From NCBI GenBank assembly GCA_963791835.1, contig CAWBTV010000007.1, positions 941,807 through 1,005,806 of the forward strand: a DNA stretch of 64,000 nucleotides, read 5' to 3'. The stretch comes from an uncultured Chloroflexia bacterium. GTDB lineage: Bacteria; Chloroflexota; Ktedonobacteria; Ktedonobacterales; Ktedonobacteraceae. The notes under the pieces were generated by a model. The model saw only the letters and a program-made list of their open reading frames with translations, did not search any database and was not told where the DNA came from. The position numbers and the translations under genes are program-made. Within the stretch, counting starts at the first letter, position 1, and each line of letters starts with the position of its first letter. Below are positions 1,258 to 61,807 of the stretch, piece by piece.

Positions 1258-1317
1258 AAAAGTGTCTACAGGAAATGCGTTGCATTTCCTGTAGACACTT
1301 TTTTAGATGTTCTGCAT
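1243..1317. repeat. 75-bp perfect palindrome (36-bp arms, 3-nt centre) spanning the stop codons and last 4 codons of two convergent genes; bidirectional terminator-like
   Basis: Left arm 1243-1278 is the exact reverse complement of right arm 1282-1317. The arms include ATGCAGAACATCTAA (MQNI*) of both flanking ORFs, with an A-tract and T-tract inside. Confidence 0.85.
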
Positions 1318-2992
1318 TACCAATTCTGCCACAATTTTGCCTGACAACATCACCAATGGCACACCACCACCGGGATGGGTGCTTCCTCCTACAAAGTAGA
1401 GATTACATATTTCGGATGTGTTGCCAGGGCGTGTGAAGGGTGCCATACGTGAGTTCGAGGAGAGGCCGTAGATTGAACCTGCATTCGCACCATATTTATC
1501 ATAGAAGTCCTGGGGGGTGAGCATAGTCTCACAGACAATATGCTCTCGCAGGTCGCTCAGGTCTACTTGTTTATAACTTGCGAGCAGGTCGAGAATACGC
1601 TCACGATATGCGGGTGCTTCGCGTTGCCAATCGCTTTTTGATGTGAGATAGGGCGCGTTGACCAGCACAAACAGGTTTTCGTGTCCTGGGGGTGCCTGTG
1701 TCGGGTCGCTACGCGTGGTAGCACAGACATAGATCGTTGGATTGTTCAAGGGTACATGGCGTTCAAACAGGTCGTCAAACTCGGCGTGATAGTCGTCGGA
1801 GAAAAAGATGTTGTGATGCGACAATTGCGGATACTGCTTATCGAGACCGAGCAGCAAGACAAAGCCAGAGCAGGACGGCTCTAGCTGTTCCAGGCGTTGC
1901 ACACGTCTTCTGTTGCGTATCGCTGGCGATAGCAGTTCGCGATGCGTTGTCACGACATCGCTATTGGCGATCACGATATCACTCCGTAGCACACGCCCGT
2001 CTGCCAGCACAACACCACGAGCAGTATTTCGCTCCACAAGAATACGCTGTACATTACAGCATGTCTCAATCGTGACATCCAATTCACGCGCAACTCGTTC
2101 TAATGCCTGTGCTACCGCATAGATACCACCACGCGGATACCAACCACCATCGGCAAGCTCAACATAGGGAATGATGCGATAGACTGAGGCAACTTGATAT
2201 GGTGAAGACCCGTTATAGGTTGCGTAACGATCAAACAACTGACGTAAGTGCTCATCCTCAAAAAAGTTGTGTACACTCTCATCTAAGGTCTGTGGTGAAA
2301 GGGCGGCAAGGACAGCTTTTAGACGCGAAAGGAGGGTGGAGGGGGGTATATTATTCGTAGGGACCAGATTTATCGCGTCCGTAGGCGATTTATCGCGCGA
2401 GATGCCTTCATGTTCATGTCGTTCTTTGTGTGATCTATAGGCGATAAATCGCCTACGGACGCGATAAATCTGGTCCCTACGACCATCTGGATGTCCTCGT
2501 AACACATAACGTACAAACGTCCTCAAAACATTCGAGCGGACTACCTAAGCTATGATAGAGAAACGGGTCTGCCGCAGCTTGAAAGATGTTATAAGCCGAA
2601 TCAAAGAAGTGCAAGAAGGTGGTGCCATCATGTAGATTGAGTTGTGCAAACTCCTGGGCTAGTCGCTCGTGGTCACGCCATGCATTGAGTATCAGGCCGT
2701 CATGATAAAAGTAACGGCATGTGATGTCGAGCGGAATCAGATCAAGATAGTCTTTGAGATTGCGTTGAGCCGATTGGAAGAGGTCTTCGAGGACGTAAGG
2801 CATGGTGATAAGTGATGGACCTGTATCGAAGCTAAAGCCGTCTATCTGGATAGAATTAAGTTTTCCGCCAACCTGTGCCTGTCGCTCTAAGATGGTGACA
2901 TGATGACCCTGTGCTGCTAAGCGAATGGCTGCTGAGAGACCACCAATACCCGCTCCTATGACGATAATGCTCTTATGTTTGGATGTAGACAC
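1303..2992 (-). pseudogene. CrtI/CrtD-family FAD-dependent carotenoid desaturase split into two ORFs by a 124-bp MITE (2357-2480)
   Basis: N-terminal fragment (2481-2992) has the Rossmann motif IIVIGAGIGGLSAAIRLA. The C-terminal fragment (1303-2356) has CrtI-like GGWYPRGG and a C-terminal GGSTHPGGG. The fragments are in different frames. Deleting exactly 2357-2480 restores one 521-aa ORF. Confidence 0.7.
2357..2480. mobile_element. MITE-like palindromic element, family A (GTAGGGACCnnTTTATCGCGTCC terminal inverted repeats), nested inner repeat
   Basis: Terminal inverted repeats gtagggaccagatttatcgcgtcc / ggacgcgataaatctggtccctac. The same termini recur at least 9 more times in the window. Confidence 0.75.
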
Positions 2993-3820: not shown

Positions 3821-5143
3821 ATGATGAGATTGTTCATAGAAAATGCCTGTAGGGGTCTAATTCATCACACCCTGTTGGCAATGAACCATGCCGGAGAATA
3901 TGGAAAACGTTTAATCAATATCTCACAAGTTTGTTTATCGCCAATAGGGTGTAATGAATTAGACCCCTACAGATACGTTGCCGCACTCGTACTTTGTATT
4001 CTTATCATCCTATTCGCTATCCTCATCATCAACCTGTTCACGTTTTATCGTCTACGACCTCATATTGAGACACAAAACACAGAACAGCCGCTTGTCTCTG
4101 TCCTGGTGCCAGCACGGGATGAAGCGCAATCTATCGAGCGATGTGTGCGTTCGTTGGTAGCCCAAACATATGAGCGATTAGAGATACTTGTATTGGACGA
4201 TCATAGTAGTGATGCGACGGCAACAATTGTGCAGAGCATCATGGATGAATTGCCTGTACAGCAACAAGGAAGGGTACGACTGTTGCAAGGCGAGGAGTTG
4301 CCGTTGGGATGGGGTGGCAAAAACTTTGCATGTCATCAACTGGCACAACACGCGACAGGGAACTATTTGTTTTTTACGGATGCTGATACTGTTCACGACC
4401 CTAAGATGATTGCATCCGTAGTTGATTGTATGCAAATCCGTAAGGTTGCATTGCTCACAGCACAACCAACCTATGAACTTGATAGTATAGGAGAACGTCT
4501 TGTCGTACCGCTCCTCACCTTTACCATTATGACGCTGCTTCCTGTGGCCCTTATTCCTGTGCGACCGGAGCCAAGTCTTGCTACGGGTAATGGACAACTG
4601 TTGTGTTTTGAACGTTCCGCATACGAACATATTGGTGGACATTCGTCGGTGAAGAATCGCATTTTGGAAGATGTGTTACTGGCACGTGCGGTCAAGGCGG
4701 CAGGCTTGCGTATGATTTTTGTGGATGCACAAGACCTTGTGCGTTGTCGCATGTATCGCTCGTTCGCGGAGGTCTGGTCGGGCTTCTCGAAAAACCTGTT
4801 CGCGTTTTATAACTATGCGTTACCCTTCGCGCTTATCGGACTTGTGCTAAATATCCTACTTTTTATTGTGCCAGCATTGCTCATTTTATCAGCCCTATTT
4901 ATACCATTCTCGTTTCCGACATTGCTTTTGGCGACAGGTGCCTATGCGCTTCCTGTCGTGATGCGCATGTTATTAACGCTGCGCTTTACACAGACGCAAC
5001 GAGGGTTGATGCTTTTGCTGTGTCTGCTGCATCCCGTTTCGATTGCGCTTGAATGCCTGATTTTGCTCAATTCGATACGCTGGCATTATCGTAAAGAGGG
5101 AACGGTGTGGAAGGGTCGGCAATATGTGACTTATCAGAAATGA
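3821..5143 (+). CDS. Family-2 glycosyltransferase with C-terminal multi-TM domain (CruC-like); true start uncertain because a MITE occupies the 5' end
   Basis: GT2 motifs VLVPARDE...LVLDDHSSD...FTDADT. Residues about 9-50 of the ORF are encoded by MITE D1, which contains an in-frame ATG at 3881. Confidence 0.7.
   Translation: MMRLFIENACRGLIHHTLLAMNHAGEYGKRLINISQVCLSPIGCNELDPYRYVAALVLCILIILFAILIINLFTFYRLRPHIETQNTEQPLVSVLVPARDEAQSIERCVRSLVAQTYERLEILVLDDHSSDATATIVQSIMDELPVQQQGRVRLLQGEELPLGWGGKNFACHQLAQHATGNYLFFTDADTVHDPKMIASVVDCMQIRKVALLTAQPTYELDSIGERLVVPLLTFTIMTLLPVALIPVRPEPSLATGNGQLLCFERSAYEHIGGHSSVKNRILEDVLLARAVKAAGLRMIFVDAQDLVRCRMYRSFAEVWSGFSKNLFAFYNYALPFALIGLVLNILLFIVPALLILSALFIPFSFPTLLLATGAYALPVVMRMLLTLRFTQTQRGLMLLLCLLHPVSIALECLILLNSIRWHYRKEGTVWKGRQYVTYQK
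3848..3969. mobile_element. MITE-like element, family D (GTAGGGGTCTAATTC terminal inverted repeats)
   Basis: gtaggggtctaattcat...atgaattagacccctac. Related copies at 15983-16130 and a remnant at 10963-10997. Confidence 0.7.
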
Positions 5144-5155
5144 ACACACGCTGAC

Positions 5156-5578
5156 CTAATTCTTCGTTCCATGAAGATGTTGTATCTCCTCTCGAATCTG
5201 GAAGTTCGCAAGCCGTGATTCTTGAAGCATAAAGTAAGCTCCTGCGAGTATCATACACATTCCGAGAATCGTTAGACTCACTGGAAGCCAGGTAAGCATA
5301 TCAGCAAAGTAGCGGTCTACTGCGATAGAGAGACAATCTAGTACCAAGATACCTACCGCGAGAAAGAAAGCGGTCACTGCTCGCTCTGCCAGCAGTGACC
5401 GCGAGGCATACCGATCAAGCCAACGTTTCGACATATCTTGCGTCCAGCCAAGCTTTCTCGTTTCCTCGTCAGACAATTGCAACATTGCTCTGGCACGATC
5501 AATAGCTCGTGCCAGTCGTTGAAGTGCCGTCGCCACAAGGGATGCAGAACCCAGAATCAAAAGAGCAGGTGTAATCAT
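5156..5578 (-). CDS. Small membrane protein (DUF2721-like), start uncertain
   Basis: ORF 5156..5803 trimmed to the internal Met (MITPALLILGSA) downstream of the preceding same-strand gene. Three predicted TM segments. Confidence 0.45.
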   Translation of the reverse strand: MITPALLILGSASLVATALQRLARAIDRARAMLQLSDEETRKLGWTQDMSKRWLDRYASRSLLAERAVTAFFLAVGILVLDCLSIAVDRYFADMLTWLPVSLTILGMCMILAGAYFMLQESRLANFQIREEIQHLHGTKN

Positions 5579-7369: not shown

Positions 7370-7780
7370 TTACTTGGTATTCCGTTCTACGCTCGTACAC
7401 CACAAGGCCCATGAGATAAACACGGCTTGAAAGGGCAAGCGTCCCCACATGTAAATCGGTGAGTTCATGAAGCCACCTAGCTTGATATTTGCGACAGCTT
7501 GATAGACGTTGGCAGGAAAAATTCCGACAAGAAGCGCGACCAGGCCCCATGCCGATGCGCGTTGTACTTTGCGGTTGGGGATGAATAGGCCAACACCACC
7601 GAGAAATTCAAGGACACCTGTAATATAGAGTGCCTCACGCCGAAAAGGTAAGAACGGTGGAATGATTTTCAATTCCGCTTCACGCGCCGTAAAGTGCATG
7701 GTAGAGGCAAGAATAAAGAGAATACCCATTGTGAACCGTGCAAGTGTTTTCCATAGACGGGGTGAAGAGAGGTTACGCAT
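7370..7780 (-). CDS. DoxX-family membrane protein
   Basis: Four TM helices and DoxX-like sequence pattern. Confidence 0.6.
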   Translation of the reverse strand: MRNLSSPRLWKTLARFTMGILFILASTMHFTAREAELKIIPPFLPFRREALYITGVLEFLGGVGLFIPNRKVQRASAWGLVALLVGIFPANVYQAVANIKLGGFMNSPIYMWGRLPFQAVFISWALWCTSVERNTK

Positions 7781-8645
7781 ACAATTTTTTCCTTTTTATA
7801 AAAGATAATCCCACTAGAACCAGTCCAGCAAGTATACCAAGCAGTGCGGCCCAATAATAGCCGTGCGTGATATCGACCAGCCCAAACATAAAGAGGCTTG
7901 CGCCAAAGAGAATACGTGGCGTTAATAAAACAAGTCTATAAAATGGCAGGGAGACCGCAAGGGTCTCCCCTGCATTTTCGCGATACCCTCCATATAGGGG
8001 AGACCCTTGCGGTCTCCCTGTTTCCCGAAGTACTCTATCGACGAGTAAGAGTAGTATGAAGGCGACGACGAACCATGCCGCGAAATTTGCTAATGGCACA
8101 GCATAATAGTTGATAGGTCCGGGGGCAAGCCACTCCCAGTAGTGTTCCAGGTGGGCGGCGACAGGCTCAATTTCTAAGTCCAAGAGTGTCGCGAGTGCAG
8201 CACCCAATAATGCACCAGATACGCCAAGAGGCCGCTTTTCCGCACGTATCCAACCATAAGCCCCGAACACAATCAGTACCCACGCGAACATGACAGCCAT
8301 TGGGACTCCAACCGGCAGGCTGGGAAAAAGTACATCGGTATAACGATAAAGGCCAAAGGGAAAGCCTGTTCCTACCCCTATGGCCTCAACGATGTAAGAG
8401 AGAGTGATAACAAGCAAGCCTGCACATACACCACGCAGCCAACCATACTGTAAGCTTGCCGCCACAATGAGTAACATGCCTTCGAGGAAAAGCAGCGCAC
8501 TTCCAGCCCATGCCAGCGAAAAGGGCGGATGCACATCAAAGGCAACACCAGTTACAGCTATCGGATACGCAATACAAAATATGCCGAAAAGCACGAGAAA
8601 GATGCGTGGCCCCCATTTGAAGGTTGAATGTTGCTCAAATGTCAT
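7773..8645 (-). CDS. Polytopic membrane protein, possibly carotenoid 1,2-hydratase CruF-like (DUF422); contains an in-frame MITE (family E) insertion
   Basis: Seven or more TM segments. Sits in the locus with CrtD-, CruC- and CruD-like genes. Residues RETGRPQGSPLYGGYRENAGETLAVSLPF are encoded by repeat 7946-8019. Confidence 0.5.
   Translation of the reverse strand: MTFEQHSTFKWGPRIFLVLFGIFCIAYPIAVTGVAFDVHPPFSLAWAGSALLFLEGMLLIVAASLQYGWLRGVCAGLLVITLSYIVEAIGVGTGFPFGLYRYTDVLFPSLPVGVPMAVMFAWVLIVFGAYGWIRAEKRPLGVSGALLGAALATLLDLEIEPVAAHLEHYWEWLAPGPINYYAVPLANFAAWFVVAFILLLLVDRVLRETGRPQGSPLYGGYRENAGETLAVSLPFYRLVLLTPRILFGASLFMFGLVDITHGYYWAALLGILAGLVLVGLSFIKRKKLYA
7946..8019. mobile_element. MITE-like element, family E (two inverted copies of GGGAGACCGCAAGGGTCTCCC hairpin flanking a 24-nt spacer), translated in frame
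   Basis: Left 7946-7971 and right 7996-8019 are reverse complements. A single-hairpin relative lies at 52685-52749. Confidence 0.7.
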
Positions 8646-10962: not shown

Positions 10963-10997
10963 AATTGTAGGGGTCTAATTCATTAACCCCTACAATT
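10963..10997. repeat. Family D MITE remnant (solo terminal repeat gaattgtaggggtctaattcattaacccctacaattc)
   Basis: Shares the GTAGGGGTCTAATTCAT terminus with D1 and D3. Confidence 0.55.
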
Positions 10998-11112
10998 CAC
11001 GATCCATTCGTTACAGGAATAATTCCGCGTACATTTTTGGTTACATTAGTATGAACATCAGTCCTTATTTGTTGTACTTTTTCAGACAGAATGCTATATT
11101 TTTCCCATCCTA

Positions 11113-11182
11113 TAGGGACCGAGTTATCGCGTCCTTATAACACATGCAAGAACAGACAAGGACGCGATAAATCGGTCCCTAC
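11113..11182. mobile_element. MITE-like element, family A
   Basis: tagggaccgagttatcgcgtcc...ggacgcgataaatcggtccctac. Confidence 0.7.
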
Positions 11183-12361: not shown

Positions 12362-12420
12362 TGCCAAAAAGCTATTGACTCAGCGTACATGTTGTACGCT
12401 GAGTCAATAGCTTTTTGGCA
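12362..12420. terminator. 59-bp perfect palindrome (28-bp arms) downstream of the PLP-enzyme gene
   Basis: tgccaaaaagctattgactcagcgtaca-tgt-tgtacgctgagtcaatagctttttggca. Confidence 0.7.
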
Positions 12421-15982: not shown

Positions 15983-16130
15983 AATACGAAACGTCCGTAG
16001 GGGTCTAATTCTATTACACCCTTGTGGCAATGAACAATCTTGGAAGAGAATGAGAATTGTTACAACATCCTCCCAAATTGTATATTGTTTACAGGGTGCA
16101 ATAGAATTAGACCCCTACGGACGTTTCGTA
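15983..16130. mobile_element. MITE-like element, family D with extended terminal repeats (ATACGAAACGTCCGTAGGGGTCTAATTC)
   Basis: Outer 28-nt terminal repeats are perfect reverse complements. The internal sequence is related to D1. Confidence 0.75.
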
Positions 16131-18681: not shown

Positions 18682-18746
18682 TGGTCGATGTATCGCGTCC
18701 TTGTTGGCAGTCGATTGCTCAAAAGGACGCGATACATCGGTCCCTA
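18682..18746. mobile_element. MITE-like element, family A (degenerate left terminus)
   Basis: ...ggtcgatgtatcgcgtcc...ggacgcgatacatcggtccctaa. Confidence 0.55.
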
Positions 18747-18781
18747 ATGAATATTGACAACCAAAAACGGGAATTCTTCTC

Positions 18782-18909
18782 GGTAGGGGCAGCAATTCAT
18801 TGCGCCCAATGATGGGGGCGGCGAGGCAACGTGTCGGCAACGATTCACGCTCCCAACGCGAACCCCTCTCGCCCCCATCATTGGGCGCAATGAATTGCTG
18901 CCCCTACCG
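18782..18909. mobile_element. MITE-like element, family B (GGTAGGGGCAGCAATTCATTGCGCCCAATGATGGGGG terminal repeats)
   Basis: 36-nt terminal inverted repeats. The core cgtgtcggcaacg is shared with the family A interior. Further copies at 60254-60383 and a chimera at 46829-46949. Confidence 0.75.
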
Positions 18910-18979
18910 CCATTGCCGTGTTCGATTGTCAAAGTTCATCAGGTGGTAAGATACAAGGAAAAACGTTGGAGGAATTGCT

Positions 18980-20080
18980 ATGTCCGACATACTTTCAGGT
19001 GAATACTTTTTCTTACCACAGGAACATATTGTCTTTGGTTCTGGAAGTCTCACACAACTTGCCGATGAGGTACGACGTGTTGGCGGACAGCGTGCCTTTC
19101 TCATTACGGGCAATTCGCTGGCAACACAGAGCGATGTTGTGACGCGTGTTGAGCAGGCACTTGGCTTTCTGCACGTTGGCACGTTTTCGGGTATCCGACA
19201 ACATTCACCCAAAGGTGATGTGGCACTGGCAGCACAGCAAGCACAAACGCTCAAGGCCGATGTGCTTGTGAGTGTCGGCGGTGGAAGTCCAATTGACGCA
19301 ACCAAAGCTGTTGCACAGGCACTCTATCAGCAAAGTGGGAGCTTATTGCCACATATTGCCATGCCGACAACGCTTTCTGCTGCTGAATTTTCGCATCTTG
19401 TCGGCGTTACTGACGAGAGCGCAAAAATGAAAAAAGGGTTTGCCGATGTGAAACTGACACCACGTAGTGTTATTCTCGATGCCAATCTCACACTTCCAAC
19501 ACCGATGCACCTATGGCTCTCAACGGGTATTCGCTCCCTCGATCATGCCGTCGAGTCGCTGTATGCCCCCGGCACACACCCTATTAACGATGTCTTAGCT
19601 CTGGAAGCCATCCGTAAGCTATTCACCTATTTACCACGTGCAAAGGCACAACCGGACGATTTGGACGCACGGACTGAACTTCAGCTTGCCTCGTGGATGA
19701 GTTTCTTTGGTGAGGTCAATACGCCAATGGGTCTCAGCCACAATTTAGGTAGGCGTATCGGGGCCAGTTATGATGTACCACATGGTATTACATCCTGTAT
19801 TATCTTGCCGCATGTTATGCGTGCCTTCGCGCCAATTTATACACAGCAACTCGGTAGAATAGCACAAGCTCTCGGTCTCATTTCAGAAAATGCAGAGGCA
19901 ACACAACTAGCCCTTTCTGCCGCTGATGCCGTGAGTGGCTTAATTGGACAACTTGCCTTGCCACAACATTTACATGATGTTGGTATTGACGAGAGTGAAC
20001 TACCAAAGATAGCTGCAACAACGCCTAACCGAGAATTTAGCACAGAGGAACTAGAAAAACTGTTACGTGGAATGCTATAA
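18980..20080 (+). CDS. Iron-containing alcohol dehydrogenase family protein (maleylacetate-reductase-like)
   Basis: Fe-ADH motifs GGGSPIDATKA and metal-binding His region. Confidence 0.75.
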   Translation: MSDILSGEYFFLPQEHIVFGSGSLTQLADEVRRVGGQRAFLITGNSLATQSDVVTRVEQALGFLHVGTFSGIRQHSPKGDVALAAQQAQTLKADVLVSVGGGSPIDATKAVAQALYQQSGSLLPHIAMPTTLSAAEFSHLVGVTDESAKMKKGFADVKLTPRSVILDANLTLPTPMHLWLSTGIRSLDHAVESLYAPGTHPINDVLALEAIRKLFTYLPRAKAQPDDLDARTELQLASWMSFFGEVNTPMGLSHNLGRRIGASYDVPHGITSCIILPHVMRAFAPIYTQQLGRIAQALGLISENAEATQLALSAADAVSGLIGQLALPQHLHDVGIDESELPKIAATTPNREFSTEELEKLLRGML

Positions 20081-24055: not shown

Positions 24056-25231
24056 ATGCCACCATTTTCATTTACAATTGACGCCGAATGTCCTGATACA
24101 TGGGCGCGTGCTGGCACCATTCAGACACCACACGGCACGATTTCGACGCCTATCTTTATGCCCGTAGGCACACAGGCAACGGTGAAGAGTGTCGCACCTG
24201 AAGAACTTCATGCAGCCGGGGCGCAAATTATTCTCTCCAATACCTATCACTTAATGCTCCGTCCAGGCTCCGAATTGGTCGCTGATTTTGGTGGTCTCCA
24301 TTCGTTTATGCATTGGGATGGTCCAATTCTGACTGATAGCGGCGGCTTCCAGGTATGGAGTCTGGGCCATTTACGTAAGTTGAGTGAAGATGGCGTGACG
24401 TTTAAATCGCATCTCGATGGTTCAGCCCATACGCTTACACCCGAACGTGTAATGCAGATTGAGGCAGAGCTGGGCGCGGACATCATACTTCCGCTCGACA
24501 TCTGTGCTCCCTACCCATGCGCACCCTTAGAGGCACAGGCCGCGATGGAACGAACGCATCGCTGGGAGGAACGTGCGCTACTTGCCAAAGAACGCTATAA
24601 TCCAGCACAGGCCCTGTTTGGGATTGTACAGGGAGCATTTGAACCTGAGTTACGGAGACAGAGCGCGGAAATCATCGGCAATATGCCTTTTCCGGGTCTC
24701 TCTATTGGTGGGCTTTCTGTTGGAGAACCGAAAGCGATGATGTGGGATATGCTCAATGTCGTCACACCTGCACTACCTCGTAACAAGCCACGTCACCTGC
24801 TCGGTGTTGGTTCACCAGAAGACCTTGTGATAGGTGTCGGGCTAGGTATGGACATGTTTGATTGCGTTCTGCCCACACGCGTTGCCCGACACGGGGGACT
24901 CTTCACGCGTCAGGGTCGTGTTAGTATCAAGGGGGCACGTTTTCGAGCCGAACACAATCCCGTCGAGGTCGGCTGCGATTGCTACACGTGTCGTAACTAT
25001 AGCGCGGCCTACGTCCATCATCTAGCACGTACCGAAGAGCAACTCTATTATCGTCTCGGCAGCATTCACAATATTCGTTTTATGTTGCGTCTCGCGAGTG
25101 AACTACGTGCAGCCATTCTTGCCGGAACCTATACAGCGTTTCGTGATGAGTTCTTAGCAACCTACATGCCCGCATCCGAACAGGTACGCGAGGCGCAACG
25201 CGAAAAATGGAAGATAGCGCGTGGCAGGTAG
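24056..25231 (+). CDS. tgt: Queuine tRNA-ribosyltransferase
   Basis: TPHGTISTPIFMPVGT...LTDSGGFQ...CDCYTCRNYSAAYVHHL (zinc site). The stop TAG lies inside the terminus of MITE A4. Confidence 0.9.
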   Translation: MPPFSFTIDAECPDTWARAGTIQTPHGTISTPIFMPVGTQATVKSVAPEELHAAGAQIILSNTYHLMLRPGSELVADFGGLHSFMHWDGPILTDSGGFQVWSLGHLRKLSEDGVTFKSHLDGSAHTLTPERVMQIEAELGADIILPLDICAPYPCAPLEAQAAMERTHRWEERALLAKERYNPAQALFGIVQGAFEPELRRQSAEIIGNMPFPGLSIGGLSVGEPKAMMWDMLNVVTPALPRNKPRHLLGVGSPEDLVIGVGLGMDMFDCVLPTRVARHGGLFTRQGRVSIKGARFRAEHNPVEVGCDCYTCRNYSAAYVHHLARTEEQLYYRLGSIHNIRFMLRLASELRAAILAGTYTAFRDEFLATYMPASEQVREAQREKWKIARGR

Positions 25232-25330
25232 GGACCGATTTATCACGTCCTGGGGGTGGGGTGGGGCAGCGTGTCGGCGACGATGTGTTTGCCCCACCCC
25301 ACCCCCAGGACGTGATAAATCGGTCCCTAC
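25228..25330. mobile_element. MITE-like element, family A (inner G-rich palindrome); its GTAGGG terminus supplies the tgt stop codon
   Basis: gtagggaccgatttatcacgtcc...ggacgtgataaatcggtccctac. Confidence 0.75.
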
Positions 25331-25344
25331 AGAGGAGATTTCTC

Positions 25345-26166
25345 ATGTCTATAACAACATATCGTTTTGTCAACACAGAACCGTTAGGAGCCGCGTTCAA
25401 CATGGCAGTTGACGAGGCCATCCTGACACATTACCTGCAAGGGTTGGTCCCACCTACGTTACGCACGTTTCGCTGGACACAGACATCTATCACGCTTGGA
25501 CGCTTTCAGAATGTCGAGCGCGAAATCGAGCAGGAACGTTGTCAACAAGAGGGTGTTGCGCTTGTACGGCGTCCTACGGGAGGGCGTGCGGTGTATCACC
25601 GGGACGAGTTCACCTATAGCCTTGTGATTGGCAAACGCGAGCATGTCCCGTCTGGGGTTGTCGCGGCCTATGCCTATCTCGCGCAAGGACTACAGGCAGC
25701 CCTACAACAACTTGGGATTGCGTCTGAACTGAGCGAAGAGCATGTTAGCAAAAACCCATCTGCGGCCTGTTTTGCATCATCGACACAGGCAGATTTGACC
25801 GCGCGTGGCTTCAAAATTATCGGTAGTGCGCAAGTCTGGAAGGATGATGCATTGCTTCAACAAGGATCGCTCCCACTCGATGACCGATCTCAGGAGTTCT
25901 TTTCATTTTTGCGCTTTCCGACTGAGGCCGCGCGTGCCGAAGCACTGGCCCTCTATCAAACAAAAACAACACCGCTTCACACATTTGAGGCAACTATCAC
26001 AAGAGAACAAGTGGGTAAAGCATTTGTTACCGGATTTGGAGAAGCATTACACTCGCAATTCGTACAGGAAGAACTCAGCCAATCAGAATGGGACATGGCG
26101 CGACAACTGGTTGAAGAGAAGTATAATACGCTTGTGTGGATGAAAGAACGCGTCACCCTTCTATAG
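25345..26166 (+). CDS. Lipoate-protein ligase / octanoyltransferase family (BPL_LplA_LipB domain)
   Basis: FRWTQTSITLGRFQNVERE...VRRPTGGRAVYH. The ORF-track ORF 25207..26166 is trimmed because its 5' end is MITE-encoded. Confidence 0.75.
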   Translation: MSITTYRFVNTEPLGAAFNMAVDEAILTHYLQGLVPPTLRTFRWTQTSITLGRFQNVEREIEQERCQQEGVALVRRPTGGRAVYHRDEFTYSLVIGKREHVPSGVVAAYAYLAQGLQAALQQLGIASELSEEHVSKNPSAACFASSTQADLTARGFKIIGSAQVWKDDALLQQGSLPLDDRSQEFFSFLRFPTEAARAEALALYQTKTTPLHTFEATITREQVGKAFVTGFGEALHSQFVQEELSQSEWDMARQLVEEKYNTLVWMKERVTLL

Positions 26167-27791: not shown

Positions 27792-27792
27792 C

Positions 27793-27857
27793 AAAAGAGC
27801 AGAGAGTGTACATTATGTCCTGATTCTCAGGACATAATGTACACTCTCTGCTCTTTT
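27793..27857. terminator. 65-bp perfect palindrome (31-bp arms) one nt after the stop codon
   Basis: aaaagagcagagagtgtacattatgtcctga-ttc-tcaggacataatgtacactctctgctctttt. Confidence 0.7.
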
Positions 27858-28009
27858 GGAAAATTATACTTGACTTATTTGGAGAGGGTCTCTATAATCA
27901 AAATAGAGACCAAAAAAGATATGGTCAAGAAAGCACACGGACTTATAAAAATGCTCAGCTACAAACAACCAGTACAACAGAATAGCTTTTATTATTGGTT
28001 TAGCCCCCC

Positions 28010-29215: not shown

Positions 29216-29241
29216 ACAGGCACGTAAAGCGAGTTCACTAA

Positions 29242-29341
29242 CATGACAGGGGCAAGCCCAGTCACTACTATACACGGAACCGCCTGGCTTCGCCCCACAG
29301 GGGCGAACAGTATAGTAGTGACTGGGCTTGCCCCTGTCATG
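29242..29341. mobile_element. MITE-like element, family C (CATGACAGGGGCAAGCCCAGTCACTACTATAC terminal repeats)
   Basis: 32-nt terminal inverted repeats. Further copies at 50119-50205 and 54480-54578. Confidence 0.75.
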
Positions 29342-29482
29342 TTGGCAACATCGGCTTCAACAGCTTTTACATGTCGATTTTCTCTCGACTCATCTTAAAC
29401 AGTATGATATACTCTGTGTACGTAGAGAGGGATTGTTTGTAATACTTGGTCGGGATAGACCAAAGGCTTTGAGGTGAACACG

Positions 29483-30136: not shown

Positions 30137-30207
30137 TGTAGGGACCGATTTATCGCGTCCTCTTGCGATATCAATTATCGGTGAGGACGCGATAAATCGG
30201 TCCCATT
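30137..30207. mobile_element. MITE-like element, family A
   Basis: gtagggaccgatttatcgcgtcc...ggacgcgataaatcggtccc. Confidence 0.7.
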
Positions 30208-31217: not shown

Positions 31218-32783
31218 ATGCCTTTAGACAGGAAAGACTCAGGCTCTACCTGGCAAGCTCCTCCAACATATAAGAACACTGAGTTTCAGCCAGACGCGCC
31301 CTGGGAACCAGACGACGATGAAATGGATATTCCATCAATTCAGCAGGAACAGGAAATTCCAACGGTTCCAACAGCTATCAATAGCATTCATATTGGAGCA
31401 AACGACCCGGTTGAAAACGAAAGTGAAGAAGCAGTGACCACTGGACGCACTGCACTCATGAGCCAGATTGGTCGTTATTCCTCATTCATCTTGGCCCCAC
31501 TGCTCTTTGCGGGGCTTACCAGTCTGATTGTGTTGCCAACAGTCGCTATTGGTCGTGCCAATTTACCACCGTCAACACTTTTCCCCCTTGCAATTATTAT
31601 CCTGGCGATTGCCCTTGCTCAGGGTGTCGCAACGTATTATACTGATACCACAAGCGGTTTATGGGCTATTTATACTGTTGCAGGCTTTTTCCTTTTTATG
31701 CTTGTCGGCTGTTTCGCGCTCTTTGGTGCCGTTCCGGGTATCATTCTCCTACTCATCCTTGTCGTTCTCTCTATTTTTCTCGCACGACGCTACATTCATC
31801 CAGTGGCAGAGGAATATGTGGATATTGTGCGCTCATTTGGAAAATACAAGCGCACACTCTACCCAGGCTTCAATATCCTGTTGCCGTGGGAGCAAATTTC
31901 GCATCATCTGAGTACGGCTGAAACAATTTGGAAAACGCCTATACAGCGTGTGCAGATGACACGTGACGAGGATGTTGTATTGCGTGGCAGTATGAGCTAC
32001 CAACTATTGCCAGAAGATGCGTATCTTGTGACAGGTGTAAAAAACTGGGAAGAGAGTTTACAAGACATTTTCGTCGCATCACTACAATTAGTTGCGAAGA
32101 CCTTTACACCCGAAGATTTCATTGCATGGCCTCAGGGGATGTATACTCGTCCTACACACGGAAGCGCGATGCCCCTTTCTGAGGGTGAAACTCGCTGGGA
32201 ACAGGTCAATGGGCAAGTCTTGCAGCGAGTGCGAGACCGTGCCGCACTTTGGGGTGTGCAGATTAACGAGGTTCGCCTCTATGATATTGCTCTTGCTCCA
32301 CATGGGCATGGATTACAAGATGAAATAACAGAGCCAATCGCACCAAAAAAGGGAGGAGCGGCGATTCCTCAACAGGCAGCGCCTGCGTTTCAGCCAGTTC
32401 CTCATCCTCAGCCAGTAGCGGTACAGCCACCACAACCCAAGCAGCCTACACCACCACAGCAAGCGGTAGCGAATGTCCAGGTTCCAAAGGGGCTAAAAGA
32501 AGAGACGTTACGTAAAGCATACACCGAAGTAAAGAATGGGAATATCAAAGAACCGGAAACCATTCGCAACCTTGCGGCCCAATTTGAAGCCGTTGCCAAT
32601 AATCCAGAACTGAATAACGCGTTTACCTTTGATGCAAGAAGAGCGGCGATTAACTTGTATGCGGAGGCAGATAGACGACAGGAAGAGGAAGAAGCCAATG
32701 CTGGTACGCTCTTCACGGATGAAACAAAAGTTGATTGGCCCAGACGCCGTGCGACCGATGAAAATATCATGAGTGGGGGGTAG
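31218..32783 (+). CDS. SPFH/band-7 domain membrane protein with Pro/Gln-rich C-terminal region
   Basis: N-terminal TM helices. SPFH-like VRDRAALWGVQINEVRLYDI. Start set at ATG 31218, downstream of the preceding gene's stop. Confidence 0.6.
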   Translation: MPLDRKDSGSTWQAPPTYKNTEFQPDAPWEPDDDEMDIPSIQQEQEIPTVPTAINSIHIGANDPVENESEEAVTTGRTALMSQIGRYSSFILAPLLFAGLTSLIVLPTVAIGRANLPPSTLFPLAIIILAIALAQGVATYYTDTTSGLWAIYTVAGFFLFMLVGCFALFGAVPGIILLLILVVLSIFLARRYIHPVAEEYVDIVRSFGKYKRTLYPGFNILLPWEQISHHLSTAETIWKTPIQRVQMTRDEDVVLRGSMSYQLLPEDAYLVTGVKNWEESLQDIFVASLQLVAKTFTPEDFIAWPQGMYTRPTHGSAMPLSEGETRWEQVNGQVLQRVRDRAALWGVQINEVRLYDIALAPHGHGLQDEITEPIAPKKGGAAIPQQAAPAFQPVPHPQPVAVQPPQPKQPTPPQQAVANVQVPKGLKEETLRKAYTEVKNGNIKEPETIRNLAAQFEAVANNPELNNAFTFDARRAAINLYAEADRRQEEEEANAGTLFTDETKVDWPRRRATDENIMSGG

Positions 32784-32846
32784 CTATCGACGCAATAAAA
32801 TACGCGTGTGCTTTGGCACACGCGTATTTTATTGCGTCGATAGCTA
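32781..32846. terminator. 66-bp perfect palindrome (31-bp arms) running exactly from the TAG stop of the + gene to the CTA (TAG) stop of the convergent - gene
   Basis: tagctatcgacgcaataaaatacgcgtgtgc-tttg-gcacacgcgtattttattgcgtcgatagcta. Confidence 0.8.
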
Positions 32847-33365
32847 CTTTTTCACAAGTGTCGAAGCAACCTTTTCGGCGTTCCCTTCGTCCATCGTGCG
32901 GAGAGCGGCAACGGCTTCATTCGAGATAACTTTGCTTACTTCGGGATCAAACACCACGTCGTCACGCTTGCAATAGCGAAGTTTGTTCCAGGCAGCCGTA
33001 GCACGATCCCAGGCAGGGAAACGCTCTGTTGCCTCGGCATCACCCTTGACGACCCGTTGGAAAGCGTTGTAGGAAACAACAAGCGCGGTCACAATACTGA
33101 TGAATGTTAAAGCGACAAGCACAATCATCCAGAATGGATTCAGGCTTGCTTCCAACCCTCCAATCAGCACAATGATAAGAAAGATGCAAATACCTACGAG
33201 GACGCCACACGCGATGATATATGGCATCATTGATATGTTTCTTGTTGGCATATCTGGTGGCGCAGCACGCGACACACCTGATTCATATGCGGCCTGCATC
33301 GTCATGACCATATCATTTTGATGACATACAGGACAGGTTGGTTTTTCTGCTTCAGTCGTTGCCAT
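32844..33365 (-). CDS. Hypothetical membrane protein with N-terminal CxxC zinc-ribbon-like motif
   Basis: CPVCHQ motif. Two TM helices. No known family recognised. Confidence 0.5.
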   Translation of the reverse strand: MATTEAEKPTCPVCHQNDMVMTMQAAYESGVSRAAPPDMPTRNISMMPYIIACGVLVGICIFLIIVLIGGLEASLNPFWMIVLVALTFISIVTALVVSYNAFQRVVKGDAEATERFPAWDRATAAWNKLRYCKRDDVVFDPEVSKVISNEAVAALRTMDEGNAEKVASTLVKK

Positions 33366-40048: not shown

Positions 40049-40118
40049 GTAGGGATCGATGTATCTCGTCCTCGCTGGCAGTCGATTTGGCAAGAGGACG
40101 CGATGCATCGGTCCCTAC
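40049..40118. mobile_element. MITE-like element, family A
   Basis: gtagggatcgatgtatctcgtcc...ggacgcgatgcatcggtccctac. Confidence 0.7.
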
Positions 40119-43561: not shown

Positions 43562-44494
43562 ATGGACAGAGGAATGATGCAAAATTTTTCAGCACACATC
43601 GTCATTTCGGACGAAGTACAAACCGCGCTACACGAGCAGAGGCCAGTAGTCGCACTTGAGTCTACCGTCATCGCACATGGGCTGCCCTATCCTGATAATG
43701 TCACGGTGGCACAGGCGATGGAGGCAACTATTCGGCGTGAAGACGCAGTACCAGCCACGATTGGTATTTTCAATGGGAAGATTGTCGTTGGACTGGCACA
43801 GGATGAAATTCTACAGCTTGGTACCGCTCCTGTTGTGCAAAAAGTCAGTCGCCGTGACCTTGCTGTCACGCTGGCAACACGCCAACTGGGGGCCACAACG
43901 GTTGCGGGAACGATGCTTTGTGCAAGTATGGTTGATATTCGCTTTTTCGCGACGGGTGGTATTGGTGGGGTTCATCGTGGAGCCGAGACGAGCATGGATA
44001 TCTCAGCCGACCTGATCGAGTTGAGCCAGACGCCTGTACTGGTGGCCTGTGCTGGCGCGAAGTCCATTCTCGACCTCGACCTGACGCTTGAATATTTAGA
44101 GACGCATGGTGTACCCGTTGTGGGCTGGCAGACCGATGAATTGCCCGCCTTTTATGTGCGTCATAGTGGACGCCGCCTGACGCATCGCGTTGATGATGTA
44201 GCTGTAATAGCCGATATCGCACGGACGCAATGGGAACTTGGTCTGCATGGTATTGTTGTAGGCTGTCCCATCCCTGAACAGTATGCAATGGACGCCGTAC
44301 CCTTAGAGCGTGCAACAGAAGAGGCATTGCAACTCGCAAAACAACAGGGTATACAGGGATCCGCAACGACGCCATTTCTGCTCTCACATGTCGCGAAGGT
44401 GACTGCTGGCGAAAGCGTTGAAGCTAACAAAGCCTTGTTGCTCAATAATGCTATGTGGACGGCACGTTTTGCTAACGCGTATTACAACATGTAG
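43562..44494 (+). CDS. psuG: Pseudouridine-5'-phosphate glycosidase
   Basis: Indigoidine_A/PsuG family motifs (VVALESTVIAHGLPYP, ATGGIGGVHRGAE, VLVACAGAKSILD). The stop TAG lies inside the terminus of MITE A7. Confidence 0.85.
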   Translation: MDRGMMQNFSAHIVISDEVQTALHEQRPVVALESTVIAHGLPYPDNVTVAQAMEATIRREDAVPATIGIFNGKIVVGLAQDEILQLGTAPVVQKVSRRDLAVTLATRQLGATTVAGTMLCASMVDIRFFATGGIGGVHRGAETSMDISADLIELSQTPVLVACAGAKSILDLDLTLEYLETHGVPVVGWQTDELPAFYVRHSGRRLTHRVDDVAVIADIARTQWELGLHGIVVGCPIPEQYAMDAVPLERATEEALQLAKQQGIQGSATTPFLLSHVAKVTAGESVEANKALLLNNAMWTARFANAYYNM

Positions 44495-44566
44495 GGACCG
44501 ATGTATCACGTCCTTTCCTTGTCAGCATGTCAATCGCCAAAGAGGACGTGATACATCGGTCCCTAC
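44491..44566. mobile_element. MITE-like element, family A; supplies the psuG stop codon
   Basis: gtagggaccgatgtatcacgtcc...ggacgtgatacatcggtccctac. Confidence 0.7.
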
Positions 44567-44598
44567 CATCGACATATCCAGATTATCTTGTTAAACCC

Positions 44599-44658
44599 CA
44601 TTATCGCGCCCTCCTGGCGTGTCGATTGCCGACGAGGACGCGATGAATCGGTCCCTAC
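44599..44658. mobile_element. Family A MITE, degenerate copy in tandem with the previous one
   Basis: ...ttatcgcgccctcc...ggacgcgatgaatcggtccctac. Confidence 0.5.
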
Positions 44659-44762: not shown

Positions 44763-45152
44763 GTGAATAATCCACTAGAAATACGCAAGGTCATTGGCGG
44801 CGTTCTTCTTACGCTTATCTATGTCTGCTGCTTCTTATTTATCAAATCTTCGTTGGTGATAGACTGGGTGGGAGATGGTAGCGTCACCACAAGCCTCATT
44901 CTATTGGTGGCGGTTATTGGCCTTCTTGTCTTGGTCTTCTATCACATTCTCTATCGGTCCAGTCCAGAAACAACAAAATTAAGCCTGACAGCATCACTGA
45001 CACTCTTGTGGCTCGCGCTGATCATTTTTTATCCATTCCAGCCTCTACAGGCAGGTCAGAATGATGGCTCGGTTGGTTTCTTCGCCCTCATCGGCGGTCT
45101 TGCTGTCTGTGTTCTCTGGGTTCGCTTCTTCTCAGACGAGATTATTGCATAA
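44763..45152 (+). CDS. Hypothetical small membrane protein
   Basis: Four TM helices. GTG start with GAAAGGAG RBS. Confidence 0.5.
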   Translation: MNNPLEIRKVIGGVLLTLIYVCCFLFIKSSLVIDWVGDGSVTTSLILLVAVIGLLVLVFYHILYRSSPETTKLSLTASLTLLWLALIIFYPFQPLQAGQNDGSVGFFALIGGLAVCVLWVRFFSDEIIA

Positions 45153-45214
45153 AAGAATAGAACAACAAAGATGCCAACCGCTCGCGGTTGGCATCTTTGT
45201 TGTTCTATTCTTTT
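45151..45214. terminator. 64-bp perfect palindrome (30-bp arms) bridging the TAA stop of the + gene and the TTA (TAA) stop of purH
   Basis: aaaagaatagaacaacaaagatgccaaccg-ctcg-cggttggcatctttgttgttctattctttt. Confidence 0.8.
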
Positions 45215-46769
45215 AATGTCTAAAGTGTCTTTGGCCTGTAAAGATCATCGCGATGGCGTAATGGTTCGCCATACGAATCGTCTCTTCGTCACGAACGGAA
45301 CCTCCGGGCTGAATGATCGCCGTTACACCTGCTTTCGCAGCAGTTTCGACGCCATCAGCAAAGGGAAAGAATGCGTCGGAGGCAAGGACTGCTCCACGAG
45401 CGCGATTAGAGGCTTTCTCAACGGCAATCTGTACGCTGGTGACACGGTTCATTTGCCCCGCTCCCACACCGACAAGTGATAGCTTATGTGCAAGTACAAT
45501 AGCATTTGACTTAACATGGCGCACGGCCTTCCATGCAAACATCAAGTCCGTCACCTCGTCCAATGTTGGTTCGCGCTCACTCACAACATTGTAGGCGGTG
45601 TCACGATCTCCAACTGCGTCAGGCGTTTGGAGTAAGAGACCGCCGCTTACAGAGCGTACATCAAGTTTCCCTGCACCTATTCCCATAGGCTCAACAGGAC
45701 GATGTGTGGCAAGCAAACGGATATTTTTCTTTTTACGAAGTATCTCAAGCGCATCTGCGGTAAACTCTGGTGCAATCACAGCCTCGTAGAATAGTTGGTT
45801 TATCTCTTGCGCAGTTGCCGCATCTATTGGACGATTGCTGCCAATAATGCCACCATAGGCTGAAATGGGATCACCAGCGTGTGCCTTCTTATACGCCTCT
45901 ACAAGCGACTCATCACACGATAGACCACATGGATTGGTATGCTTGATAATGGCAATGGTCGGCGCGGTAAAACTTTGCGCGGCTGCCAATGCACCATCCA
46001 GATCAAGCAGATTGTTAAATGATAACTCCTTGCCGTGCAAGACTTCGGCGTCGGCAACCGTCGCAGTGGTTGCATCGTTGCCTCGTGTACCCGACCAGCG
46101 ATAGAAGGCTGCTTGCTGATGAGGATTTTCACCGTAGCGCAGTGTTTGCGCACGTTCGAGCGGTAGTGTCACAGTCTGTGGGAAGGTTTCAGTTGTAGAG
46201 GAACGCAGATATTCAGCGATAGTCGTGTCATAGCTGGCAGTTTGCTGAAGGGCGATAGCGGCAAGATGACGACGTGTTGCAAGACTTACCTCACCCTGTT
46301 CACGCCACTCCTGCATAACCGCAGGATAGTCTTCTGGACGTGTCAGGATTAGCACATCTTGAAAGTTTTTCGCGGCTGCACGAGTGAGTGTCACGCCACC
46401 GATGTCTATCTTCTCCAATGCCTCCATCAACGTCACATTTGATTGCGCGATGGTTTTCGCAAATGGATAGAGGTTTGAGACCACAATATCAATTGGGACC
46501 ATATTGTGTATGCGCAACTCCTCTTCGTGTGAAGGGAGGTTTCGACGGGCAAGAATGCCACCCAGAATGGCAGGGTGTAATGTCTTGACACGCCCATCAA
46601 GTATTTCAGGGAAATTTGTCAAGACACTTACCGACTCAGCTTCAATGCCACCAGCGTGTAGTGCTTTTAAGGTTCCACCCGTTGCAAAAATAGTTACGTC
46701 ATGACTTCTTAGTTCTTGCGCTAACTCAAGAAGGCCATTGCGATTGTCAACGCTCATCAATGCTCGCAT
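45213..46769 (-). CDS. purH: Bifunctional AICAR transformylase / IMP cyclohydrolase
   Basis: MGS-like N-terminal domain (RALMSVDNRNGLLELAQELRSHDVTIFATGGT) and AICARFT domain. Confidence 0.9.
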   Translation of the reverse strand: MRALMSVDNRNGLLELAQELRSHDVTIFATGGTLKALHAGGIEAESVSVLTNFPEILDGRVKTLHPAILGGILARRNLPSHEEELRIHNMVPIDIVVSNLYPFAKTIAQSNVTLMEALEKIDIGGVTLTRAAAKNFQDVLILTRPEDYPAVMQEWREQGEVSLATRRHLAAIALQQTASYDTTIAEYLRSSTTETFPQTVTLPLERAQTLRYGENPHQQAAFYRWSGTRGNDATTATVADAEVLHGKELSFNNLLDLDGALAAAQSFTAPTIAIIKHTNPCGLSCDESLVEAYKKAHAGDPISAYGGIIGSNRPIDAATAQEINQLFYEAVIAPEFTADALEILRKKKNIRLLATHRPVEPMGIGAGKLDVRSVSGGLLLQTPDAVGDRDTAYNVVSEREPTLDEVTDLMFAWKAVRHVKSNAIVLAHKLSLVGVGAGQMNRVTSVQIAVEKASNRARGAVLASDAFFPFADGVETAAKAGVTAIIQPGGSVRDEETIRMANHYAIAMIFTGQRHFRH

Positions 46770-46828
46770 TTATGTATCCTTTCGTAAAAATCTTATGAAC
46801 ATAACCCGAACACGATCATTCCTCTTGG

Positions 46829-46949
46829 TAGGGACCGATGTATCGCGTCCAAAGATGGGCAGGGAGGGGTCCGCATTGAAGCGAGAAATCGTTGCCGACA
46901 CGTTGCCTTTCCACCCCATCTTTGGGCGCAATGAATTGCTGCCCCTACC
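46829..46949. mobile_element. Chimeric MITE: family A left terminus joined to family B right terminus
   Basis: gtagggaccgatgtatcgcgtcc...cgttgccgacacg...tgggcgcaatgaattgctgcccctacc. Confidence 0.7.
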
Positions 46950-48925: not shown

Positions 48926-49000
48926 AAAAGAGAAGAGAAAAGGGTGGGGGCAATGCATGAGAATCTCATGCATTGCCCCCACCCTTTTCTCTTCTCTTTT
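48926..49000. terminator. 75-bp perfect palindrome (36-bp arms) between two convergent stop codons
   Basis: aaaagagaagagaaaagggtgggggcaatgcatgag-aat-ctcatgcattgcccccacccttttctcttctctttt. Confidence 0.8.
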
Positions 49001-50092: not shown

Positions 50093-50118
50093 GTGTAGCA
50101 CTAATTTAAAAGCGGCGG

Positions 50119-50205
50119 CATGACAGGGGCAAGCCCAGTCACTACTATACAACGCTCTGCCACGCGACCCATTGTATAGTAGTGACTGGGCTTGCCCCTG
50201 TCATG
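50119..50205. mobile_element. MITE-like element, family C
   Basis: catgacaggggcaagcccagtcactactatac...gtatagtagtgactgggcttgcccctgtcatg. Confidence 0.75.
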
Positions 50206-50241
50206 CCGAATATACTTCAATGACCTTTAAATCATCCTATA

Positions 50242-52673: not shown

Positions 52674-52684
52674 GCCCTTTTATG

Positions 52685-52749
52685 AAGATAAGAAAATAAT
52701 CGAACAGGAGACCGCAAGGGTCTCCTGTTCGATTATTTTCTTATCTTCT
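52685..52749. repeat. Family E single hairpin (CAGGAGACCGCAAGGGTCTCCTG) embedded in a 65-bp palindrome between convergent genes; terminator-like
   Basis: gaagataagaaaataatcgaacaggagaccgcaagggtctcctgttcgattattttcttatcttc. Confidence 0.7.
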
Positions 52750-54454: not shown

Positions 54455-54479
54455 ATTATTATATGAGAGGCAAAAGAGG

Positions 54480-54578
54480 CATGACAGGGGCAAGCCCTGT
54501 CACTACTATACACGGGTGACGCATGGCAGAGCCACGCTGTGAGGTCAGTATAGTAGTGACAGGGCTTGCCCCTGTCGT
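54480..54578. mobile_element. MITE-like element, family C
   Basis: catgacaggggcaagccctgtcactactatac...gtatagtagtgacagggcttgcccctgtcgtg. Confidence 0.75.
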
Positions 54579-60253: not shown

Positions 60254-60383
60254 GGTAGGGGCAGCAATTCATTGCGCCCAATGATGGGTTGGGAGGGGTT
60301 CGTGTCGGGTGAAGGAATTGTCGCTGATAGATTGCCCTTCCGCCGCCCCCATCTTTGGGCACAATGAATTGTTGCCCCTACCG
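60254..60383. mobile_element. MITE-like element, family B
   Basis: ggtaggggcagcaattcattgcgcccaatgatggg...cccatctttgggcacaatgaattgttgcccctacc. Confidence 0.75.
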
Positions 60384-61739: not shown

Positions 61740-61807
61740 GTAGGGACCACGTTTACGGCGTCCATAGGCAATTAATTGCCTATGGACGCCGTAAACGTGG
61801 TCCCTAT
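61740..61807. mobile_element. MITE-like element, family A variant (GTAGGGACCACGTTTACGGCGTCC termini)
   Basis: Perfect 68-bp palindrome-like element with the same GTAGGGACC...GGTCCCTA ends. Confidence 0.65.

Follow-up and report, generated by a model that had tools for sequence, protein, structure and literature searches.

Repetitive extragenic palindromes (REPs) tagged with GTAG or CGTC were surveyed in more than 80 species, Chloroflexi included, by Di Nocera, De Gregorio and Rocco (2013, BMC Genomics 14:522). In that survey the GTAG tag often gave the flanking open reading frame (ORF) its TAG stop codon, and some copies lay inside ORFs; Thermomicrobium roseum is the only Chloroflexi name in the text, and Ktedonobacteria are not in it. 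The defining features of GTAG-tagged REPs and of REPINs (REP doublets forming hairpins) that accompany a REP-associated tyrosine transposase (RAYT) have been set out (PMC2817692, PMC3116915, PMC3733652), and in the REP systems that have been characterised the cognate RAYT, TnpA-REP, recognises its target through GTAG and also relies on it to choose the CT cleavage site (PMC3333891, PMC8266576). Here we analyse a repeat of this kind in 64,000 nucleotides of DNA from an uncultured member of the Ktedonobacteraceae (Chloroflexota; GenBank assembly GCA_963791835.1, contig CAWBTV010000007.1, positions 941,807 to 1,005,806), hereafter the window, where its terminus GTAGGG holds the stop codons of tgt, psuG, and the N-terminal fragment of a crtD-like gene. 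An earlier note on this DNA had described the repeat as a miniature inverted-repeat transposable element (MITE) whose family-A ends recurrently supply the stop codons of host genes and may have replaced the native C termini of Tgt and PsuG.

Stop Codons Supplied by the Repeat Tag

Each end of the repeat, here called a head, begins with a GTAG(G) tag that stays unpaired; a small hairpin with a bulge comes next. All three stops were confirmed at the positions given by the earlier note, each being the TAG of a GTAGGG on the outer edge of the repeat: at 25229-25231 in tgt (GTAGGG 25228-25233, the left tag of the REP), at 44492-44494 in psuG (GTAGGG 44491-44496), and at 2479-2477 on the minus strand in the crtD-like N-terminal fragment (GTAGGG 2480-2475). 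The frequency check that the earlier note had proposed was run on the window together with 894 kb of DNA from relatives, a sample that contains 243 GTAG-tagged family-A heads, 217 of them independent by flank similarity. For each head we recorded where the upstream open frame of at least 80 codons stops. The TAG of the tag was the stop of such an ORF at 26 of the 243 heads, corresponding to 25 independent flank clusters among 217 (~12%). The neighbouring offsets, -30 to -2, had 1-4 cases each with a mean of ~1.3, and the spike at GTAG rises ~20-fold above them (P value ~1e-23, Poisson). In the two remaining frames, only 6 ORFs in total ran on into the REP, against an expected ratio of 1:2 (P value 9e-8 for 25 versus 6, binomial). 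As 23 of the 26 coupled ORFs are longer than 150 codons, the spike is not due to spurious frames. The REP terminus recurrently supplies the stop codon, far above chance, and the earlier note was right not to read the overlap as a coincidence.

The composition around stop codons shows a related pattern. Among 726 ORFs, a G preceded the stop in 48% of those ending in TAG versus 26% of those ending in TAA and TGA, and GG followed the stop in 47 of 248 TAG cases versus 29 of 478 cases with other stops. The GG-followed GTAG stops also include family-B heads and other hairpin-forming variants.

ORF 18904-19305 (minus strand), seemingly a fourth case in the window, runs antisense to a genuine iron-containing alcohol dehydrogenase (Fe-ADH) gene and is probably spurious. 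Nor is there a family-A terminus at 48920, where TAG TAGGG is followed by a different palindrome, or at 59470 (GTAGGGTGTAATG), where ORF 58436-59473 ends with CAG TAG GGTGTAATG. At the latter site the sequence following the stop (59470-59490) matches the family-B inner arm TAGGGTGTAATGAAT and is perhaps what remains of a REP to which the ORF formerly owed its stop.

Identity and Anatomy of the Repeat

The repeat at the tgt, psuG, and crtD-like stops belongs to the GTAG-tagged REP/REPINs of RAYT type and is no classical MITE, the label under which it had been noted. The window contains ~14 elements with 27-28 GTAG-tagged heads, more than the about ten copies first counted, and three subfamilies of head can be told apart, A (GTAGGGACCGATTTATCGCGTCC), B (GTAGGGGTCTAATTCATTACACCC), and C (GTAGGGGCAGCAATTCATTGCGCCC). 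GTAGGG itself occurs 36 times in the window versus 14.8 +/- 3.8 times in shuffles. Heads of subfamilies A and C fold into an unpaired GTAGG followed by a bulged stem of 7-8 bp (z -2.4 and -2.7, respectively), and their stems differ by compensating changes. In the loci of relatives and the window, 243 of 259 hairpin cores are preceded by GTAG, and the G before TA is kept in 245. T stands directly before GTAG in 61% of all heads, and CT is the commonest dinucleotide at that position (32% of uncoupled heads). The role of GTAG in recognition and as a cleavage guide (PMC3333891, PMC8266576) would explain why the tag does not drift, and it fits the CT|GTAG consensus found here.

Heads occur mostly in pairs. 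Doublets of two A heads hold 180 of 225 heads (80%) and have a modal length of 68-71 bp; 27 heads (12%) are solo, and the element at 46828-46948 is a hybrid of one A and one C head. REPs accumulate directly 3' of ORFs, the tags of REP-A being intergenic in 171 cases and on stop codons in 23. A scan with head A that covered one genome per species found more than 113 stretches among the matches listed, all of them from metagenome-assembled genomes (MAGs) of Ktedonobacteria; L-numbers below denote DNA stretches of relatives. REP units have been gained, lost, or replaced at the same sites between relatives. In L016, a 159-aa ORF matches Pfam Y1_Tnp (PF01797; 23.4 bits, cut-off 23) and the NCBIfam model NF047646 for REP-associated tyrosine transposases (E 7.5e-17; its 61.6 bits fall short of the 80 bits set as equivalog cut-off). 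Family-A doublets lie on both sides of this RAYT-type ORF, at 923-1043 and 1607-1719. Taken together, the tag, the hairpin of each head, the occurrence as doublets and solo heads, and a RAYT flanked by doublets identify the repeat as a GTAG-tagged REP/REPIN. No Rfam family matched in the window.

The spacers of the longer doublets have one arm rich in G runs and the other rich in C runs (e.g., GGGGGTGGGGTGGGG / CCCCACCCCACCCCC), placed around a conserved core similar to CGTGTCGGCGACGAT (window 25251-25307, 18808-18882, and 60280-60356; L016 946-1020 and 1630-1696). Judged from its sequence, the G-run motif looks able to form a G-quadruplex. A further REP-like head type, GTTAAAC.GCATTATCGCG.CC, has no GTAGGG tag and is paired either with itself or with family-A heads (L127 2512-2576; window 44590-44611; L026 ~5190-5215).

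Consequences for Tgt, PsuG, and the CrtD-like Protein

The doublet between tgt and lplA has arms of 41 nt that are 100% complementary and is predicted to fold into a single hairpin (-57.9 kcal/mol, z -14.5); a scan for intrinsic terminators around this element gave none. The best homologue of Tgt is 96% identical, and the relatives with names are Reticulibacter, Dictyobacter, and Tengunoibacter. Among 120 homologues the protein is 387-409 aa long, mostly 390-405 aa, with 392-393 aa in the closest ones, and ...QREKWK marks the end of the conserved core. The last residues are ARAKL, ARAKS, ARAKQ, or ARAKQG in the closest homologues (94-96% identical) and ARGR in the protein of the window. At REP-less loci, tgt stops with TAA or TGA and is followed by a spacer to lplA, 19-45 nt long in L004, L005, and L006 and 97 nt in L127. 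In an ungapped alignment with L127, GCC AAA TCG TAA is placed against GGC AGG TAG, so that the Tgt of the window has one residue fewer and carries the substitutions A->G and K->R. A different palindromic element, of the GTTAAAC type, lies 4 nt past the native TAA in L127, which indicates that the tgt-lplA spacer is a recurrent landing place.

The lplA orthologues of L004-L006 and L127 have 273 aa and begin at the Met equivalent to 25345. In the window the lplA frame is open backwards through the entire REP doublet to an ATG within the 3' end of tgt, giving an ORF of 319 aa (25207-26166) that gene callers may prefer.

The Met of MQNF, 5 codons past 43562, is the start residue in most orthologues of PsuG. 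Conservation of the PsuG core reaches to ...RFAxAYY, and a variable tail of 0-15 residues comes after it. The tail of the window protein is NM, 1-3 residues shorter than the REP-less tails found after AYY, ASSH-TAA (L126), DDSHR-TAG (L128), and ALL-TAG (L129). A first metagenome scan with the psuG 3' region had given no match and a second one a single contig, L128. The psuG-REP junction of the window is shared with L007/L008 (tail KM) and L009 (tail EK) and therefore predates the split of lineages that are ~86-87% identical in DNA. The psuG of L010 is frameshifted by the loss of 4 nt and stays open across the head, ending in ...YYCRDRFITSS*, and in L125 an in-frame head lies four codons further downstream (tail AILAHL). 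As the tails of Tgt and PsuG vary in length family-wide and the change amounts to 1-3 residues, no real C-terminal sequence was lost: the suspected replacement of the native C termini holds weakly, for the stop and the tail, and does not extend to the proteins proper.

The third gene is of another kind. Its N-terminal fragment and its C-terminal part (1303-2355) cover profile positions 1-87 and 143-442 of Amino_oxidase, and their frames differ by one; by frame arithmetic they are reconciled when the 124 nt of the REP doublet are removed. No canonical start codon was found directly after the REP in the window for the C-terminal part. Homologues of the N-terminal fragment in relatives have 163-209 aa, and in the closest relative, L124, a doublet of another REP subfamily interrupts the gene at this very site, so that the locus failed as a base-exact empty site. 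The repeat at crtD either interrupts a gene or is a spacer inside one, and L124 has its copy of this gene split as well; the case carries little weight, as one in three ORFs that run into a head would be expected to stop at the TAG.

Origin of the Exact Overlap

The exactness of the overlap could follow from the layout of the repeat, in which a TAG triplet lies at the outermost, unpaired edge of every head. Where a head lies against the end of a coding region, or reaches a little way into it, and the frame is right, the TAG of its tag would become the stop codon. Junctions in the TAG frame would survive, with translation ending at once and only 0-3 tail residues lost, and those in the other two frames would add at least 8 REP-encoded residues and be mostly purged, which we infer to be the cause of the excess. 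At some junctions a G-TAG stop would have been there before the repeat, leaving the protein unchanged. In tgt and psuG, a native stop of TAA type and a few tail codons would be gone and the TAG of the REP would have taken over. Both routes, replacement followed by selection and pre-existing G-TAG, seem to exist, and the tgt and psuG of the window fit the former, since REP-less relatives stop by TAA or TGA at another codon.

The whole account, namely that the family-A MITE of the earlier note is a GTAG-tagged REP, usually an inverted doublet of REPIN-like or bacterial interspersed mosaic element (BIME)-like type in a Ktedonobacteria host, and that its TAG ends the ORFs it abuts, appears to us probable. 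A number of points weigh against it. Family-B heads fold weakly (z -0.25), no RAYT gene lies within the 64-kb window, and the RAYT match of L016 falls under its equivalog cut-off and comes from a related MAG. The loci were sampled around REP-A matches, and genome-wide fractions are therefore biased upwards; the repeat supplies the stops of 3 of ~60 ORFs in the window and of ~40 of 726 ORFs in the REP-centred sample. Replacement by selection alone needs many insertions into coding ends, and, given the G-TAG stops without a REP in L109, L128, and L129, some of the coupling may reflect pre-existing GTAG stops or excision scars instead of replacement. The base just 5' of GTAG is A in 8 of 26 coupled heads versus 13 of 217 other heads (P value 5e-4), and this A looks like part of native Lys, Gln, or Glu codons and not like the flank of a REP. 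The relatives, ~82-87% identical in DNA across most of the aligned blocks (to ~92% locally), are too distant for base-exact insertion boundaries, and an automated search for filled and empty pairs at 124 loci gave three usable pairs, from genomes ~80% identical and with ambiguous boundaries.

Several of these points are also what target-site choice would produce. IS200/IS605 elements insert 3' of a fixed tetranucleotide, and a REP might likewise have been added directly 3' of a pre-existing GTAG, a native NNG TAG being the landing site and the protein remaining unchanged; we regard this as possible, with the odds against it. It agrees with the enrichment of A before coupled tags, with L129, whose psuG ends on a native TTG TAG and has no REP, and with two pairs of relatives that the earlier note would have counted against replacement, as their ORFs end at the same residue with and without the repeat: REP-less L109 and REP-bearing L103 (AAG TAG GG), and REP-less L128 (CAT CGG TAG G) and L125 (CAT CTG TAG GGACC). 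Non-genic GTAGs acting as stops are also of the right order of magnitude, 6.1% for non-REP versus 11.9% for REP copies. However, REP-less orthologues of tgt (L001, L004, L006, and L127) and of psuG (L126) stop by TAA or TGA at another codon, so the same comparison comes out differently for these two genes, and the REP-less GTAGG alleles could equally be scars of deletion. The tag is moreover present on both ends of the doublets, and characterised RAYTs cleave at a CT outside GTAG, which makes GTAG a part of the REP (PMC8266576). Mere chance is negligible: it could appeal to there being only three cases in the window, one of them an interrupted gene with a 1-in-3 prior, but is refuted by the spike across 217 independent heads.

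A classical MITE with terminal inverted repeats (TIRs), related to IS630/Tc1-mariner elements, would target TA and begin with G, TA+G giving TAG at both ends. The long TIRs and the TA beside both ends (GTA|GGG...CCC|TAC) are as this model expects, but the model is highly improbable and we reject it. The G 5' of TA is too well conserved to be random flank and belongs to the element; the heads are found solo, in tandem, and as hybrids between subfamilies, each with a hairpin of its own; and removal of the element with one TA (120 nt) leaves the crtD frame broken, whereas removal of 124 nt restores it. No evidence of TA duplication was found. The doublets flank a RAYT-type Y1 transposase and not a DDE enzyme; the Y1-type transposase was the only one seen beside the repeats, no systematic search having been made for a parent insertion sequence (IS) of DDE type. 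Selection might instead act on the arrangement itself, if a hairpin 2-3 nt past the stop tuned the upstream gene by stalling ribosomes or protecting the mRNA 3' end. The idea draws on Escherichia coli, where REPs less than 16 nt (within 15 nt) from the stop down-regulate translation (summarised in PMC12306157), and on the retention of the psuG-REP junction in three lineages (window, L007/L008, and L009); against it, the affected genes are functionally unrelated and the arrangement is dispensable, the in-frame stop having been lost by deletion in L010 and the REP being missing from L126 and L128. We think adaptive coupling unlikely. Comparably slight is the prospect that REP units are preferentially built at or retained on stops, with GTAG as a termination signal 2-3 nt before a strong hairpin. 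If true, ~5% of the genes of the sampled regions would share a REP-encoded termination context by which the end of translation is linked to the structure of the mRNA 3' end, with native G-TAG stops as seeding sites for new REPs. The account based on GTAG-tagged REPs remains the one we prefer.

Other Features of the Window

The features of the window are collected in Table 1. The REP units at 44491-44566 and 44590-44658 form a BIME-like cluster.

Table 1. Genes and repeat elements discussed in the text, with positions in the window
Feature	Position	Strand	Remarks
tgt, queuine tRNA-ribosyltransferase	24056..25231	+	391 aa; Pfam TGT PF01702, 2e-150
REP doublet (REPIN-like), tgt-lplA gap	25228..25330	.	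103 bp; near-perfect palindrome GTAGGGACCGATTTATCACGTCC...GGACGTGATAAATCGGTCCCTAC
Heads of the 25228..25330 doublet	25228-25250; 25308-25330	plus; minus	Family A, inverted; G-rich palindromic spacer between
lplA-like lipoate-protein ligase	25345..26166	+	Ribosome-binding site GAGGAG 3-8 nt past REP right end
psuG, pseudouridine-5'-phosphate glycosidase	43562..44494	+	Indigoidine_A, 9e-118
Family-A REP doublet abutting psuG	44491..44566	.	76 bp; junction also in L007, L008, L009
Second REP unit 3' of psuG	44590..44658	.	Left arm type GTTAAAC..ATTATCGCGCCC; right head family A, 44636-44658 minus
CrtD/phytoene-desaturase-like flavoprotein, N-terminal fragment	2477..2992	-	171 aa; NAD_binding_8; Amino_oxidase profile 1-87
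crtD-like gene, C-terminal part	1303..2355	-	Amino_oxidase profile positions 143-442
Family-A REP doublet splitting crtD-like gene	2357..2480	.	124 bp; inner GTAGGCGATTTATCGC repeat
Family-B REP doublet	3849..3970	.	
Minimal family-B palindrome GTAGGGGTCTAATTCATTAACCCCTAC	10967..10993	.	
Family-A REP doublet	11112..11182	.	Left tag degenerate (ATAG); conserved in L040
Family-B REP doublet	15997..16118	.	Convergent genes either side; palindrome reaches 13 nt past tags
Degenerate family-A doublet	18684..18747	.	Left tag lost, right tag TTAG
Family-C REP doublet	18783..18907	.	
Family-A REP doublet	30138..30206	.	Right tag degenerate
Family-A REP doublet	40049..40118	.	70 bp, modal size class; present in L009 too
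Hybrid doublet	46828..46948	.	Left head A, right head C
Family-C REP doublet	60255..60381	.	
Divergent family-A-like doublet	61740..61807	.	Right tag CCCTAT

In the window, the upstream genes that do not use the TAG of the tag stop 22-33 nt before the head in 6 of 6 cases (3849, 15997, 16118, 40049, 60255, and 61740), a distance that may be a preferred spacing; the signal is weaker in the larger sample, in which offsets -19 and -23 are only slightly raised.

The window also contains other palindromic sequences. A second, unrelated repeat family with arms CATGACAGGGGCAAGCCC(A/T)GTCACTACTATAC and 19-36 nt between the arms is present in three copies (29240-29343, 50116-50208, and 54479-54580). 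Unique long palindromes lie at gene ends (1243-1317, 32780-32847, 45150-45215, 27792-27858, 52684-52748, 12362-12420, 48926-49000, and 63685-63756), with arms of 28-37 nt and loops of 1-5 nt, all perfect save the one at 63685-63756 (97%), and several of them reach exactly from stop to stop of convergent genes. At 1243-1317 both convergent proteins end in MQNI*, as their last four codons form the arms of the palindrome; the same gene pair in L124 has a different yet again perfect palindrome, the symmetry having been maintained while the sequence changed. A perfect 25-nt inverted repeat, CAGGGAGACCGCAAGGGTCTCCCCT / AGGGGAGACCCTTGCGGTCTCCCTG, occupies 7947-8020 inside ORF 7773-8645, and a similar hairpin, GGGAGAC..GTCTCC, follows a GTAG stop in L095.

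Discussion

Ktedonobacteria rich in REPs owe a measurable share of their stop codons to the repeat. Stops supplied in this way shape the C-terminal tails of proteins and gene calls close to REPs, that of lplA being an example, as well as stop-codon statistics, in which G before TAG is in excess. What our analysis adds is the quantification of the coupling, the finding that the proteins change by 1-3 residues, and the assignment of the element to REP/RAYT instead of MITE, and it extends GTAG-REP/RAYT systems to another class of Chloroflexota.

Correia and Nezha are TA-targeting bacterial MITEs derived from IS630/Tc1-like elements. The repeat resembles them in its small size, its long inverted repeats, and the TA beside its ends, but differs in the conserved G of the tag, the hairpin of each head, the solo heads and hybrids, and the Y1-type transposase. 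With the Rickettsia palindromic elements and other intragenic REPs it shares, at the crtD-like gene, the position of a palindromic repeat within a coding region; unlike the Rickettsia elements, the insert is not read in frame, and it ends the upstream part and splits the gene. The E. coli study behind the summary on stop-proximal REPs mentioned above is reportedly that of Liang, Rudd and Deutscher from 2015. As in those REPs, a hairpin directly follows the stop of the upstream gene; here the stop lies inside the REP tag.

The repeat also resembles REPIN-RAYT systems. Each unit has two inverted REPs (Nunvar et al. 2010, PMC2817692; Bertels and Rainey 2011, PMC3116915), and a Y1 (HUH) gene is flanked by REPs with an invariant GTAG and often a CT on its 5' side (Ton-Hoang et al. 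2012, PMC3333891; NAR 2021, PMC8266576). Unlike in those systems, the putative RAYT comes here from a related MAG only and scores under the NCBIfam equivalog cut-off. There is a likeness, too, to the GTAG-tagged REPs surveyed by Di Nocera et al. (2013), such as SMAG of Stenotrophomonas and the REPs of Pseudomonas and E. coli, in which an unpaired 5' GTAG likewise precedes a short stem-loop. Those REPs are found singly or as inverted dimers, for the most part close behind the 3' ends of ORFs, and their tag often gives the TAG stop. The phenomenon has thus been known for the GTAG REPs of other phyla since 2013, and Ktedonobacteria are a new lineage for it, not a new mechanism. The repeats of the window differ from those surveyed in their Ktedonobacteria host, in the extension of the tag to GTAGGG, in three co-resident head subfamilies, and in the often long, G-rich palindromic spacers, with units of 70-125 bp that each form one near-perfect hairpin.

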